This document shows positions 25,525 through 29,874 of a DNA stretch of 64,000 nt, piece after piece. The stretch is taken from assembly GCA_034521815.1 (NCBI GenBank), contig JAXHLW010000013.1, positions 1,408,001 to 1,472,000 on the forward strand, given 5' to 3'. The DNA is from Trueperaceae bacterium. Lineage in GTDB: Bacteria > Deinococcota > Deinococci > Deinococcales > Trueperaceae. The notes under the pieces are model-generated. The model was not told the origin of the DNA, ran no database searches, and worked only from the letters and a program-made list of their open reading frames with translations. The translations under genes were made by a program, and so were the position numbers. Within the stretch, counting starts at the first letter, position 1. Every line of letters starts with the position of its first letter.

Positions 25525-26276
25525 GCCGTCCGGGCTCCCGTCGAAGCGGTCGACGCGGCCGTCGCGACGCTGCTGGTCGACGACCATCCCGTCGTCCGGG
25601 CCGGCTTGCGCGCGTACCTCGAGCGCCACGCGGGGCTGCGGATCGTGGGCGAGGTGGACGGCCTGGCGCAAGCCCGCGCGTGGCTCGAGCGGGCTGCGTC
25701 CGGCGAGCACGGCACGACACGTCCCGGTCTCGGCAACGCCGCGTCCGAGCACGCACCGTCCGAGCATGCACCGTCCGAGCCTCCAGAGCTGGTGATCTTG
25801 GACCTGAAGCTCCGCGACGGGGCCGGAACGGAGCTGATCCCCGACGTGCACCGGTTGGCGCCCGGAGCCCGGATCCTGATCCTGTCCAGCTTTCCCGAGG
25901 AGGACGCCGTCCGTGCTGCCATGCGAGCGGGCGCGCACGGTTGGCTGGACAAACAGCAGGACCCGTCGGCTCTGGCCGACGCGGTTCGGGCGTCGCTGCG
26001 CGGCGAGCTGCCGATGGCGGCCGAGGCGGTCCGCGCACTGAGCGCACCACCGCGGAGCGATCCGTTCGACGCGCTCACCCCGCGCGAGCGCCAAGTGCTG
26101 GACGGCATCGCGGACGGCCTGTCCAACCGCGAGATCGCAGGGCGCCTGGGCGTGCGCGAGAAGACCGTCAAGACGCACGCCGGCAGCATCTACACCAAGC
26201 TGGGCGTCGACCGGCGCACGCAGGCCGCCCTGCTGGCACGCGAGCACGGTGCTGCCGGGCCGCACGGGCCCGGTGA
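25521..26276 (+). CDS. NarL/LuxR response regulator (indels near start and end)
   Basis: VDDHPVVR, ILDL, LTPRERQVL, SNREIA, TVKTH; ATG 25521 and TGA 26276 are each off-frame relative to the coding frame. Confidence 0.82.
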   Translation: MSRPGSRRSGRRGRRDAAGRRPSRRPGRLARVPRAPRGAADRGRGGRPGASPRVARAGCVRRARHDTSRSRQRRVRARTVRACTVRASRAGDLGPEAPRRGRNGADPRRAPVGARSPDPDPVQLSRGGRRPCCHASGRARLAGQTAGPVGSGRRGSGVAARRAADGGRGGPRTERTTAERSVRRAHPARAPSAGRHRGRPVQPRDRRAPGRAREDRQDARRQHLHQAGRRPAHAGRPAGTRARCCRAARAR

Positions 26277-26425: not shown

Positions 26426-26630
26426 ATGTTCTCGCACCCCGACGTTCTTCTCAGAATCGCCCGATCCACCGTCACCGAGCGCGCCGGCCGTGCCGCGTCG
26501 CGTGCTCGCGCTCGCTCCGCAAGCCCCGAACGCGATCACCCGAGGCCACGAGTCCAGCCACGAGTCCAGCGCCTGGAGCCCGCTCTTCGTCCTTCTTCGT
26601 CAGCTCTCCACGCTGCGAGGAGGCCGGTGA
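26426..26630 (+). CDS. Small hypothetical protein (probable frameshift)
   Basis: Strong AAGGAGG RBS then MFSHPDVLLRIAR; end uncertain. Confidence 0.4.
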
Positions 26631-26783
26631 CCGGCTCGACCTGCTGCCGAGCGAGGCGGCCCCCGACCGTCGCCTCGCGCCATCCGGAGCCACGGGAACG
26701 GCGGGCGTCCGAAGACGCCCGCCGAAGCCGCGATCCCGCGAGCACGTGCTGCTCGTACGTGCTGCCCTACGTGCCCGCGCCCG

Positions 26784-27437
26784 TCAGGCGGTCGCGGTCG
26801 TGAGCTCCTGCAGGCGCCGGTAGGCGAGGTCGGCACGCTCGCGCAGCTTCTCGTCCTGGCTGCGGCCCGCCATCATCAGGTGCATGTTCATGTGCTGGTC
26901 GACGTCGCCGAAGATCGAGTTGAGGATCTCGACCTCCTGATTGCTGCGGAGGCTGGCGTCCTCGCGGAACAGCGTGGTGTAGCTGAACTCGAACTGGCGG
27001 TCGTCGATCGCGCCGGACAGGTACTGCTGAAGCACCGTCATGTACGGCGCGAGGTCGCTCTGGTCGCCGGAGCCGGCCGAGACCGCAGCGCCGCCCACCG
27101 GGAGCTGCGCGAACCCTTCGTCCAGCGTGTCGGGCGTGATGTTCCAGTTGTCCACGGCGAACACGGCCTGGCCGTCACGGAACAGGATGACCTGCGGGCT
27201 CTCGTGACGAACCCCCGTCTTCTCGCTCACCAGGTTGCTGGCGGACCGAGCCTCGACCACGCGGATCACGCCGACCATCAGGTCCTCGCGCGGGTCGACC
27301 TTCTCCTGCACGAACCCGAAGCCCTGCATGGTCTTGTGGCACGTGCCGGCCTTGAACACGACGCTGGTCGGGTGGTCGGTCAGGAACGTCTCGACCTCGT
27401 CGGGGCTCGTCAGATTGACGATTCGATCTCTCAGCAT
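26784..27437 (-). CDS. YtxJ/BrxC (DUF2847) monothiol thioredoxin-like protein with an extra C-terminal helical domain
   Basis: GGAGG RBS; FKAGTCHKT and VRHESPQVILFRDG. Confidence 0.75.
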   Translation of the reverse strand: MLRDRIVNLTSPDEVETFLTDHPTSVVFKAGTCHKTMQGFGFVQEKVDPREDLMVGVIRVVEARSASNLVSEKTGVRHESPQVILFRDGQAVFAVDNWNITPDTLDEGFAQLPVGGAAVSAGSGDQSDLAPYMTVLQQYLSGAIDDRQFEFSYTTLFREDASLRSNQEVEILNSIFGDVDQHMNMHLMMAGRSQDEKLRERADLAYRRLQELTTATA

Positions 27438-27646
27438 AGGTCCTCCCTCTCGTGGGCATCGTACAGATAGGGACGCGCGTAACGATGTCGCCGAAACGGC
27501 AATTCCGAGCGGAGCGCTCGGAACCGCACGGCGTCGTAGCCGGCTCGCGGCCCGCGCGGCACCCGACTCGCAGGCGACGCCAGCGCCCGATGGAGGCTCG
27601 CTGTCCGTATCTCCGAGGGCGCGGCCTCCTCCGCGCCACCTCCTGA

Positions 27647-27763
27647 CCGGCGGCCCACGCCCGCCGGCGCCGCGGAGGCAAAGGGGACGCACGTCCTCGG
27701 GAGACGCACGTCCAGCACCGACTTCGAGCCCATCGCCGGGCTCGCGAGCGTGGGTCGCGACCC
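27647..27763 (+). ncRNA. Candidate structured 5' leader RNA
   Basis: 10-bp closing stem 27651-60/27748-57, internal hairpin 27725-44, 11-nt direct repeat GACGCACGTCC. Confidence 0.4.
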
Positions 27764-27782
27764 GAAGCGACGAGGACTCGAC

Positions 27783-29044
27783 ATGACCAAGCAGAAGACG
27801 TTCAAGAAGCGCGTGCGCGCACGGATGGACAAGACCGGCGAGCGGTACGCCGCCGCGCGCCGCCGCCTCCTGCCCGAGGTAAGCGACGGGGACGGCACGG
27901 ACCGCTCGACCAGCGGCGGTGTCCATCCCGCCACGACGGCCTTCCGGCTACTGCTCGACCACGCGGGACACGACCTCTCGGAGGCGTCGCTGCTCGTCGC
28001 AGGTGGAGGCGTCGGCATCGGCGTGTTCGCGTTCCACTACCCGGAGTTCTCGACGCTGTTCCTCGCCGGGCGGCATCTGTGGCACGACGACCTGGCGTTC
28101 TTGCAGGGCTTGGCCGAACGACTGGGCGCGACGCTCGACGTGCGCCGAGACCGGCGGCGCGAAGAAGGCCCGCACCGACCTCCTCGAGATGGTCGAGCGG
28201 GGACCGGTCGTGGCGTTCGTCGACCTCGGCACGCTGGGGCACCGCGGCGGGGTCGAGGCGTACTACGTCGTCGTCGTGCTGGACGTGGACGTCGAGACGG
28301 GCACCGCCCGGATCGCCGACCTGGCCGCGCAGCCGATCGACGTTCCGCTGGACACGCTGATGGCGGCACGCGCCCAAGCACCGCGGATTCGAGGACCCGG
28401 CTGCTGCGCCTCGACACCGCACCCGACGCGATCGACGTCGCGGCTGCCGCCCGCGCGGGCATCCGCGCTTGCATCGACGGCTTCGACGATCCACCCATGC
28501 GTGGCAGCAACTTCCGCGTGGACGGGCTCGACGCCCTCGCCAAACGCATGCGCGGTGGCGGCGAGGACGCGTGGAGCGAGGTGTTCCCCCTGGACCGCGT
28601 CTCTGGGCCGCCCTCGGGTCGTTCTACGAGTACGTCCAGCACTACGGCAGCGGAGGCGGACTGATGCGGACGTTCTATGCCGAGGCGCTGCGGGAGAACG
28701 GCGCGACCATCGACCTGGACGTCGGGGCTGCCGCCGACGCCTACGCGGCGCTCGGGGCGGCCTGGTCGGACGCCGCTCGCGCCTGCCTCCCTGACGACGT
28801 GCCCGAGCTCGCTGCGCTCGCTGCGACGATCGACGAGATCTACGACGTGTACCTGGCGCGCGGGACCGACGCGAACGAGGAGCTGGAAGCGCTGCGGGCG
28901 CGGCGGTCCGAGATCGACCAGGGCCCGTTCCCGCTGTCCGTGGCCGCGACGAGCGAGCTGGTGCACGAGCTCGCCGATCGGGTGGACGCCCTGGCGAGCC
29001 TCGAGCGGGAGGCGGTCGAGACGCTCCGGGATATCGGCGCCTGA
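27783..29044 (+). CDS. BtrH-N/DUF4872-like protein with basic N-terminal module (about 3 indels)
   Basis: GAGG RBS; MTKQKTFKKRVRARMDKTGERYAAARRRL; LSEASLLVAGGGVG; GPVVAFVD; GGGLMRTFYAEAL; joined across frames at ~28145, ~28385, ~28590. Confidence 0.7.
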
Positions 29045-29080
29045 CGCTGCGGAACATGCAGAGAGCCGGCTCGGGAGCCT

Positions 29081-29874
29081 TCACGTTGGCGACGTAGGTC
29101 GGCGATGGGCGTGACCACCGGCGCCGGTGGTCACGCCAGACGTGGCAGCGATCAGGCTCTCCTTGCCGCGGATCGTCGCGCCCCGGATCAGCGCGCTGTA
29201 GGCCAGGGTGACGACGGCGATCACCACCACGGCCAGCGCCGCCCGGGTGGTCGGCGCAATCCACGCGCCCCGTTCGCCGAACAGGTAGATCACGGCGACG
29301 GCAGGCGCCCCCACCGTCATGAGCGAAACGAGGGAGCCCCACCACGGCCCGCCTCGGTAGTAGGCGATCGCGGCGAGCACGCCGAGCGAGGCCATCGCGA
29401 AGAAGCGCAGGAACGCCTCGAACATCAAGGAGCCTATCGAGGCGGTGCGAGGGGCCAGCGTCCCCTCCGCGTCGTGCGTCCAGCCGTACGCGTCCAAGAC
29501 CAACTGACTCGACGACGAGCCCGACCGGCACCAAGAGCGCCAGCAGGGCGGCAGCAGCCATCATCGTCCAGCCGAGCGCGGCCGCGAGGCTCCGCCTCGT
29601 CATGCCGTGCGCCACGTGGACGGGCAGGTGCTGCTTGGTGAGCGCGGCGCCCATGACGAACAGGAACCAGGCAGGCGCGTTGACGGCGACGCCCATCGCC
29701 ACGTCGCTGCCGTCGGCTTCCCGCCAGAACGCGAACGATCGCGTAGAGAAGGACCGGGGCCGTGATCACGATCGGGGCGAACCAGACCAGCACCTTGCCG
29801 AGCGACCTCGTCAGGACAGCGACGGCGACGGGTAGCGGGGTCGGACGGGGCTCGCGCGACGGTGTGGAGGTCAT
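29081..29874 (-). CDS. ABC exporter membrane subunit (frameshifted)
   Basis: Hydrophobic segments across frames; KQHLPVHVAHGMTRR; follows the ABC ATPase. Confidence 0.7.

Follow-up and report, generated by a model that had tools for sequence, protein, structure and literature searches.

The 64,000-nucleotide (nt) stretch of Trueperaceae bacterium DNA analysed here, referred to as the window (GenBank assembly GCA_034521815.1, contig JAXHLW010000013.1, positions 1,408,001 to 1,472,000 of the forward strand), carries, from the ATG at 27783, a gene for a probable BtrH_N (PF14399) and DUF4872 (PF16169) protein. The first codons of this gene encode a Lys/Arg-rich peptide, which we call the cap, and the gene is preceded by a 360-nt intergenic region. 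A sequence-only reading of the window had suggested that the DNA before the ATG specifies a structured leader RNA coupled to this basic N-terminal module. When checked in the sequence, every element that this reading had listed was found in place, and the cap peptide reads as it had been given. We report that the leader is a real, conserved and covarying structured RNA that occurs in at least seven phyla, that positions 27618-27782 of the window (about 165 nt) are well supported as a 5' untranslated leader, and that the leader tracks the cap and not the family of the enzyme behind it.

Conservation and covariation of the leader RNA

Folding z-scores of single sequences are uninformative at 75% G+C. 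The 146 nt before the gene fold with -64.5 kcal/mol, compared with -63.0 +/- 3.9 kcal/mol for dinucleotide shuffles (z = -0.38; 66 of 200 shuffles are as good), and the 360-nt intergenic region likewise has a z-score of -0.38, with 38 of 100 shuffles folding as well or better. The sequence-only reading had named three findings that would speak against its structured leader. One of them, a folding energy no better than that of dinucleotide-shuffled controls, is what we obtained, though at this base composition the result is weakly informative; for another, a lack of covarying structure upstream of homologues, the outcome is plainly the opposite. The third would be a transcript start downstream of 27750, and a conserved -10-like hexamer points to a start far upstream of that position. 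We accept the structure because its architecture recurs and covaries in 36 and in 78 leaders, and not because of its folding energy.

The same blocks are found in the 170 nt upstream of 84 cap genes from all phyla. The architecture was derived from a structure-blind MAFFT alignment of 36 leaders (alignment A2) together with RNAalifold. In this alignment, standard pairs account for 95.9% of 1,176 cells, compared with 84.1% after shuffling (0 of 500 shuffles attain the observed value) and 31-49% when the partners are slid by 1-3 columns, and compensatory changes are present at 25 of the 34 pairs. For 78 leaders aligned to a covariance model (R1; 167 positions, with the cap codons not included), the corresponding values are 96.2% for the true partners, 74.9% for shuffled and 41-57% for slid ones, with compensatory changes at 31 of 38 pairs. 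The window fits the model with 73.7 bits.

The resulting fold is well supported. It consists of a three-way junction closed by the long-range helix P1, from which the P2-P3 arm and the P4 arm branch, and of two hairpin loops, those of P3 and P6, that kiss (Table 1). P1, which the sequence-only reading had missed, was independently recovered by RNAalifold, with the window aligned by cmsearch. The loop of hairpin P0 contains the 5' strand of P1, and the two helices form either an H-type pseudoknot or alternative folds. P0 itself is mostly invariant, and double changes at three of its five pairs, present in few sequences, lend it weak covariation support among the 78 leaders. The P5 region is lineage-specific, and inspection of the homologous leaders found no consistent helix there.

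Table 1. Positions of the leader elements, the cap and the capped gene in the window
Feature	Position	Strand	Evidence or remark
-10-like hexamer position, TATCTC (TANNNT in most homologues)	27608-27613	+	position relative to P0
P0 hairpin, GGCGCGG / CCGCGCC	27618-27624 / 27631-27637	+	90.4% of cells paired, 78 leaders
P1 long-range helix, CTCCT with GGGAG	27626-27630 / 27699-27703	+	5/5 pairs compensatory; 93.6-93.7% paired
P2, CCTCC with GGAGG	27639-27643 / 27674-27678	+	99.0% paired; 4/5 pairs compensatory, 78 leaders
P3 hairpin, CCGGCGG / CCGCCGG	27647-27653 / 27661-27667	+	6/6 pairs compensatory; 97.8% paired; 7-nt loop CCCACGC at 27654-27660
Kissing loop, CCCACGC with GCGTGGG	27654-27660 x 27748-27754	+	7 bp; covariation in 36 and 78 leaders
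Junction CAAA, within near-invariant G(C/U)AAAGG	27679-27682	+	alignments A2, A5
P4 hairpin, GGGGAC-GCAC-GTCCTC	27683-27688 / 27693-27698	+	98.5% paired; 4/6 pairs compensatory; holds first repeat copy
Variable P5 region	27704-27741	+	second repeat copy at 27703-27713; hairpin GCCC 27728-27731 / GGGC 27738-27741
P6 hairpin, TCGCGA / TCGCGA	27742-27747 / 27755-27760	+	4/4 modelled pairs compensatory; 92.5% paired; 7-nt loop GCGTGGG at 27748-27754
Shine-Dalgarno sequence GAGGA	27772-27776	+	6 nt before ATG; purine-rich block at the same place in homologues
Coding region of the 29-residue N-terminal cap	27783-27869	+	invariant residues with free third-position variation
BtrH_N + DUF4872 gene	27783-29044	+	open reading frame pieces and Pfam on the pieces; shifts near 28145, 28373-28396 and 28575-28588

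The P6 loop forms base pairs with the P3 loop, which lies about 90 nt further 5'. In the 36 leaders this contact is 100% paired, with compensatory changes at four of seven pairs, and in the 78 leaders it is 98.9% paired with five of seven, though it is absent from the covariance model. The two loops change jointly, the combinations including CYCACGC/GCGUGRG, CCUGCGC/GCGCAGG, CUCGCGC/GCGCGAG, CCCGCGC/GCGCGGG and CCCCAGC/GCUGGGG. As expected of a kissing loop, the complementarity is confined to the two hairpin loops and covaries, and both stems covary as well.

Much of what the sequence-only reading had taken for a 10-bp closing stem, formed by CGGCCCACGC (27651-60) and GCGTGGGTCG (27748-57), is this contact. 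The complementarity exists (10 bp, one G-U), but seven of its pairs form the contact between the loops, the remaining three being part of the P3 and P6 stems; beyond 7 bp the proposed stem is not conserved in homologues. Its supposedly mutually exclusive partners are the P3 and P6 hairpin stems, which coexist with the loop-loop contact. The exact 11-nt direct repeat GACGCACGTCC (27686-96 and 27703-13) can be followed in homologues for one copy: the first is the P4 hairpin, whereas the second recurs outside the window in a single leader, that of the same-genus relative L002, where it is partly kept; we rejected it as an alternative P4-like hairpin, which would have 3 bp. The remaining elements, CCGGCG/CGCCGG (27664-69 / 27734-39), CCGGCGG/CCGCCGG (27647-67), the palindrome at 27752-63 and the 7-bp hairpin CGAGCCC/GGGCTCG (27725-44), which overlaps P6, are all present in the window. 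Neither the CCGGCG/CGCCGG pairing nor the palindrome is kept in homologues; by inspection, the P3 stem changes at the loci L076 and L029 without a matching change in the P5 loop. Two further candidates were rejected. Pairing of GCCGG, which follows P1, with CCGGC of the P5 region is disrupted in L010, L011, L020, L045 and L049, and a role of P2 as an anti-Shine-Dalgarno mimic is ruled out by its free covariation.

Leaders of DUF1835-type genes (type B, e.g. L052:1340-1503 and L036:1341-1503) have P6 strands of GAUC/GAUC or CGUC/GACG. Copies of these strands are also found in the spacer that directly precedes the AUG (GAUC or GACGUC) and at one more place upstream, which hints at alternative pairings.

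The N-terminal cap peptide

The cap is a 30-residue (29-30 amino acids) Lys/Arg-rich module at the extreme N-terminus, followed by a linker and then by an unrelated domain. A word-based search with the first 45 residues retrieved 38 longer proteins, the bodies of which are DUF4287+AHSA1, BtrH_N+DUF4872 or DUF1835-like. In four capped proteins (P0003, P0005, P0009 and P0014), the match to DUF4287 (PF14117) starts only at residue 48-70, beyond cap and linker. The cap is therefore a separate unit, and the possibility that it is part of DUF4287 is ruled out.

Scanning one genome per species with a cap pattern yielded 358 confirmed loci, and the 80 loci that were kept come from Actinomycetota, Chloroflexota, Myxococcota, Acidobacteriota, Planctomycetota and Gemmatimonadota. 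The cap is rare in the window's own phylum (9 of 266 genomes, G000 included), which is small and comprises five families in the genome collection. A profile built from 42 caps (A6) and searched against 1.84 billion cluster representatives (50% identity) matched 3,989 clusters at E<=0.001 and 744 at E<=1e-10; for most of the 150 best-matching representatives, the match occupies residues 1-32. Among 79 full-length capped proteins, there were 28 matches to DUF4287, 25 to AHSA1, 15 to BtrH_N, nine to DUF4872 and seven to DUF1835. An alignment of 63 representatives of at least 140 amino acids (A8), in which the pattern located the cap in 62 (not in P0181), gave three families of 35, 9 and 8 capped members plus eight singletons. 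The cap heads three main unrelated families, DUF4287-AHSA1, BtrH_N-DUF4872 and DUF1835, and the suggestion in the sequence-only reading of a basic module placed on unrelated proteins is borne out: the 29-30 residues constitute a discrete and portable unit.

Residues T2, K8, R12, R14, K17, T18, G19, E20, A25 and R26 are invariant among 83 distinct sequences, though residues 11-19 belong to the search pattern and owe their invariance partly to the selection of the sample. At the invariant residues, codon positions 1 and 2 have an entropy of at most 0.09 bits and position 3 one of 0.28-1.44 bits; near-constant first and second positions together with a free third position indicate selection on the peptide. 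Methionine has one codon only, so M15 is uninformative here. In 84 of the 84 loci at which the pattern located the cap, translation starts exactly ten codons upstream of VRARM.

AlphaFold2 modelled the orthologue encoded at L003 with a mean predicted local distance difference test score (pLDDT) of 88.2. The model shows a helix at residues 3-18, a turn and a second helix at 22-36, then a disordered linker (pLDDT <50 at 34-48) and a confident domain. Comparison of the caps with Pfam and NCBIfam, even at E<=10, produced sporadic hits only (4 of 42 members, best E 0.037). Two capped proteins, P0005 and the one encoded at L052, had no match when searched against PDB sequences, and the ESM Atlas, searched with the cap, returned unnamed short proteins only, with scores below 0.9. 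Twin-arginine (Tat) signals consist of an RR motif followed by a hydrophobic stretch. The cap with its RR leads into a polar, disordered linker instead, which rules out a Tat signal peptide.

Some cap open reading frames (ORFs) are only 33-53 codons long (L021, L050 and L058; proteins P0040-P0070). Such short ORFs are mostly metagenome singletons, and at L021, L050 and L058 a gene that is full-length in relatives seems to have been interrupted. One metagenomic cluster contains five cap members with an identical length of 53 residues, and stand-alone cap proteins are possible.

Co-occurrence of leader and cap

Starting from the cap, cmsearch detected a leader ahead of the cap gene both in the window and at 88 of 88 further loci. 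Two of these matches are weak (L006, E=0.061; L086, E=0.28), and at L003 and L060 only the 5' domain of the leader matches the model. This domain begins 160-210 nt before the start codon, with the exception of L004 (280 nt), the only locus at which leader and cap are not adjacent. Here, in a relative from the same family (L004:1218-1600), the leader ends at the ATG of a 37-codon ORF (MTR...), and the cap ORF begins 110 nt further on with a GTG that overlaps the stop codon of the 37-codon ORF (GTGA).

The reverse approach started from the leader. In whole-genome RNA searches, which score only a subset of first-look candidates and may miss weak leaders, seven of seven matches in five whole genomes stand before a cap, which in two cases is a variant that the cap pattern had missed. 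The same holds for 15 of 15 matches in one class, where they occur in 11 of 151 genomes (13 of 13 when two matches from unpublished genomes are set aside), for all five matches in 121 genomes of the window's family, and for the single match in the window's own genome. The sequence-only reading had suggested that the module travels with similar leaders, and our samples hold no exception to this in either search direction.

The five whole genomes also allow leader, cap and enzyme to be told apart. Of their seven BtrH_N genes, four have both cap and leader and three have neither, and AHSA1 matches at leader hits amount to 0 of 41 in the same genomes. The leader tracks the cap, not the enzyme family. 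It accompanies the cap in three unrelated families, cap-less paralogues lack it, and it is not associated with one pathway or function. It co-occurs with the cap gene as protein-binding autoregulatory leaders co-occur with the gene of the protein that binds them.

Transcript start and promoter

Of 75 leaders, 65 have a TANNNT hexamer that starts 12-14 nt upstream of P0, counted from the first G of this hairpin (43 at -13, 18 at -12 and 4 at -14). The window copy, TATCTC, ends in C and is therefore not counted as a match; the same-genus relative L002 has TAGACT at this position. The conserved spacing argues for a start near P0 that places the whole structure in the 5' untranslated region (UTR). 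Judged from this sequence pattern, the transcript probably starts near 27618 in the window, within a few nucleotides of P0 and far upstream of 27750, and the promoter seems to belong to the portable unit. A consensus scan for sigma-70 promoters and terminators in window positions 27400-27900 returned 0 sites. Upstream of P0 in L010-L109, TTGNNN is often found about 17-18 nt above TANNNT.

The window gene and its surroundings

In the assembly, the window gene is spread over three frames. Its first frame piece matches BtrH_N with 22.6 bits, under the cut-off of 29.7, and the third piece, which lies in a different frame, matches DUF4872 with 34.7 bits, over the cut-off of 28; orthologues match both domains clearly. 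Contigs of related strains, obtained from four public DNA runs, differ from the window by 1-nt insertions or deletions at 28145, at 28373 and 28396, and at 28575, 28577 and 28588, and remain in frame exactly where the window gene changes frame. The three frameshifts are either gene decay or assembly errors; the genome to which the window belongs (2.63 Mb in 13 contigs) is 83.5% complete. The leader and cap cassette is intact in the window, despite the frameshifted gene behind it. BtrH-type capped proteins (alignment A7) gave only weak matches among PDB sequences, to AziU3 and Azi29 (E about 0.005) and to a chain named CAM1 (E 0.006).

The divergent gene upstream (26784-27440, - strand) encodes a monothiol bacilliredoxin domain (BrxC/AbxC) and a colicin-immunity-like C-terminal part. 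In the intergenic region between this gene and the leader, TTCCGAGCG and CGCTCGGAA form a perfect 9-bp hairpin with a 3-nt loop (27503-27523). Further upstream, a response-regulator gene that follows a histidine kinase has no in-frame ATG, GTG or TTG before its LLVDDHP receiver motif (25525-25606), which may reflect an unusual start or another insertion or deletion.

Discussion

The leader described here matches no named RNA family, as the sequence-only reading had supposed. A search of Rfam 15 with window positions 26500-29500 at E<=10 gave seven matches, all far below their gathering thresholds, and the only one that overlaps the leader is a model of a long non-coding RNA fragment (16.2 bits compared with a gathering threshold of 50); 12 homologous loci gave 0 matches at E<=1. 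Searches of the openly licensed text of PubMed Central and bioRxiv returned no relevant paper, although supplementary tables and subscription journals lie beyond the reach of such a search and could hold an earlier listing. Structured cis-regulatory leaders are a known kind of element, while the obligatory pairing of one with a portable peptide is new.

How might the two parts work together? In the mechanism that we propose, the cap would be the protein partner of the leader. Once made, and possibly still nascent, it would bind the folded 5' domain of its own mRNA and thereby alter both the kissing of the loops and the base pairing near the ribosome-binding site, a change that would set the translation of the cap's own gene. 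Such a cassette could be placed in front of different enzymes. The sequence-only reading had also proposed sensing through the fused domain, which might conceivably modulate the cap. By analogy with known leaders, we consider the chances close to even that the cap binds its own leader and controls translation, that is, that the two form an autoregulatory RNA-peptide cassette. More broadly, and tentatively, promoter, leader of about 165 nt and 30-residue Arg/Lys helical hairpin might make up a portable ribonucleoprotein control cassette, in which the leader has the P0/P1 pseudoknot and the kissing loop as its two tertiary contacts and the peptide binds it, perhaps on leaving the ribosome, to set translation, and which evolution would have moved to at least three unrelated enzyme families in at least seven phyla. 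We favour binding of the leader by the cap because the constant association of an RNA with the gene for a single protein module is what is seen in the leaders of ribosomal-protein genes, where that protein binds the RNA, and because we know of no riboswitch class that is tied to an N-terminal peptide.

Several systems offer partial precedents. The leaders of ribosomal-protein operons (L20, S15, L1) are likewise structured and often pseudoknotted 5' elements before the gene of one RNA-binding protein, with which they travel and the translation of which they control at the ribosome-binding site. In the present case, however, the presumed binding part is a 30-residue tag on unrelated enzymes, the leader matches no Rfam leader family, and there is no known ribosomal RNA site that it would mimic. 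The N peptides of phage antitermination systems are, like the cap, short, basic and helical and stand at the extreme N-terminus, and the cap, too, is proposed to act through a structured RNA. Their target boxB is one small hairpin, whereas the leader has about 165 nt and five to six helices; the proposed context is translation of the cap's own mRNA, and the cap, which lacks a Pfam, NCBIfam or PDB match, is unrelated in sequence to these arginine-rich peptides. In cobalamin riboswitches, a loop of the sensing domain also pairs with the loop of a hairpin near the ribosome-binding site; in contrast to these, the leader has no Rfam cobalamin match, and its downstream loop carries no Shine-Dalgarno sequence. 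Orphan riboswitch candidates are similar in being widespread, covarying 5' UTR structures without a known ligand, but the leader, which Rfam 15 does not contain, goes with an N-terminal peptide instead of a gene function. Finally, the body of the window gene and its orthologues match BtrH_N + DUF4872 proteins, of which cap-less members in the same genomes lack the leader.

A number of observations weigh against binding of the leader by the cap. Nothing but its charge marks the cap as RNA-binding, and binding and feedback are argued by analogy; profile comparison with PDB and searches of Pfam and NCBIfam gave no relative that marks RNA binding, and in the AlphaFold2 model of the L003 orthologue the cap has low confidence (pLDDT 57-67). 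Tests of locus-specific pairing, aimed at the expression platform, were negative or weak. The 3' strand of P6 pairs with the ribosome-binding site of its own locus no better than with those of other loci (-5.83 and -5.52 kcal/mol, respectively; median rank 0.50), and for the P5 region paired with this site the difference is weak (-19.2 compared with -16.5, median rank 0.28); we claim neither as a locus-specific anti-Shine-Dalgarno sequence. Adjacent leader and cap could moreover be co-inherited through recombination in the linker without any contact between them. Only three large families carry most caps, so that a shared ligand or a shared cellular target is possible, and the RNA, judged by its size, its two tertiary contacts and its near-invariant junction nucleotides, looks at least as aptamer-like as peptide-binding.

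The main rival explanation is an orphan riboswitch. The leader would then be an aptamer for a small molecule or ion that acts via the kissing loop and the ribosome-binding site, and the cap an independent tag, for example a tether to nucleic acids or polyanions or a signal for localisation or stability, co-inherited through its adjacency to the leader. Multi-helix architectures are typical of riboswitches, and so are kissing loops that link a sensor to its platform, as in the cobalamin class. The leader combines a multi-helix junction, the pseudoknot-like P0/P1 and near-invariant unpaired nucleotides across at least seven phyla with a kissing contact whose downstream hairpin adjoins the ribosome-binding site. 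Its conserved, covarying and aptamer-like fold lies in the 5' UTR, just downstream of a -10-like hexamer, and the three families of unknown function that bear most caps could share a substrate. Nevertheless, the leader follows the cap and not the enzyme, with three of three cap-less BtrH_N paralogues lacking it and AHSA1 found at leader hits in 0 of 41 cases, and Rfam contains no matching family. We judge a riboswitch less likely than binding by the cap, while taking it seriously. Less probable still is that the leader is read by another trans-acting factor (a protein, a small RNA or the ribosome) or acts alone through stability, processing or temperature, and that the cap serves a cellular role shared by the proteins, as a co-adapted module without direct contact. 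The strict coupling shows joint selection only, not contact, and the conserved promoter position makes one portable piece of everything from promoter to cap, both of which count in favour of this reading. Against it, no conserved neighbour gene turned up, although no dedicated search was made, and the patchy occurrence (9 of 266 genomes in the window's phylum, 11 of 151 in one class) argues against a separate conserved factor unless this is universal. Chance helices in G+C-rich intergenic DNA, to which the single-sequence folding energy, no better than that of shuffles, might have pointed, are refuted by covariation, conservation across phyla and strict coupling, and we give them next to no weight.

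Under either leading explanation, cap-binding leader or riboswitch, the leader represents an undescribed and widespread class of structured RNA, absent from Rfam 15 and from the searchable literature. If the cap does bind its leader, the pair would be the first portable RNA-peptide autoregulation module in bacteria. The cassette as a whole, if our reading of it is true, would amount to bacterial gene control of an undescribed kind and would supply synthetic biology with a small, orthogonal and ready-made RNA-peptide pair. If the leader is a riboswitch instead, it would add a new class of orphan riboswitch whose kissing-loop platform is unusual, and the cap would be an unexplained, highly conserved N-terminal tag. 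Either outcome provides a handle on three large protein families of unknown function.

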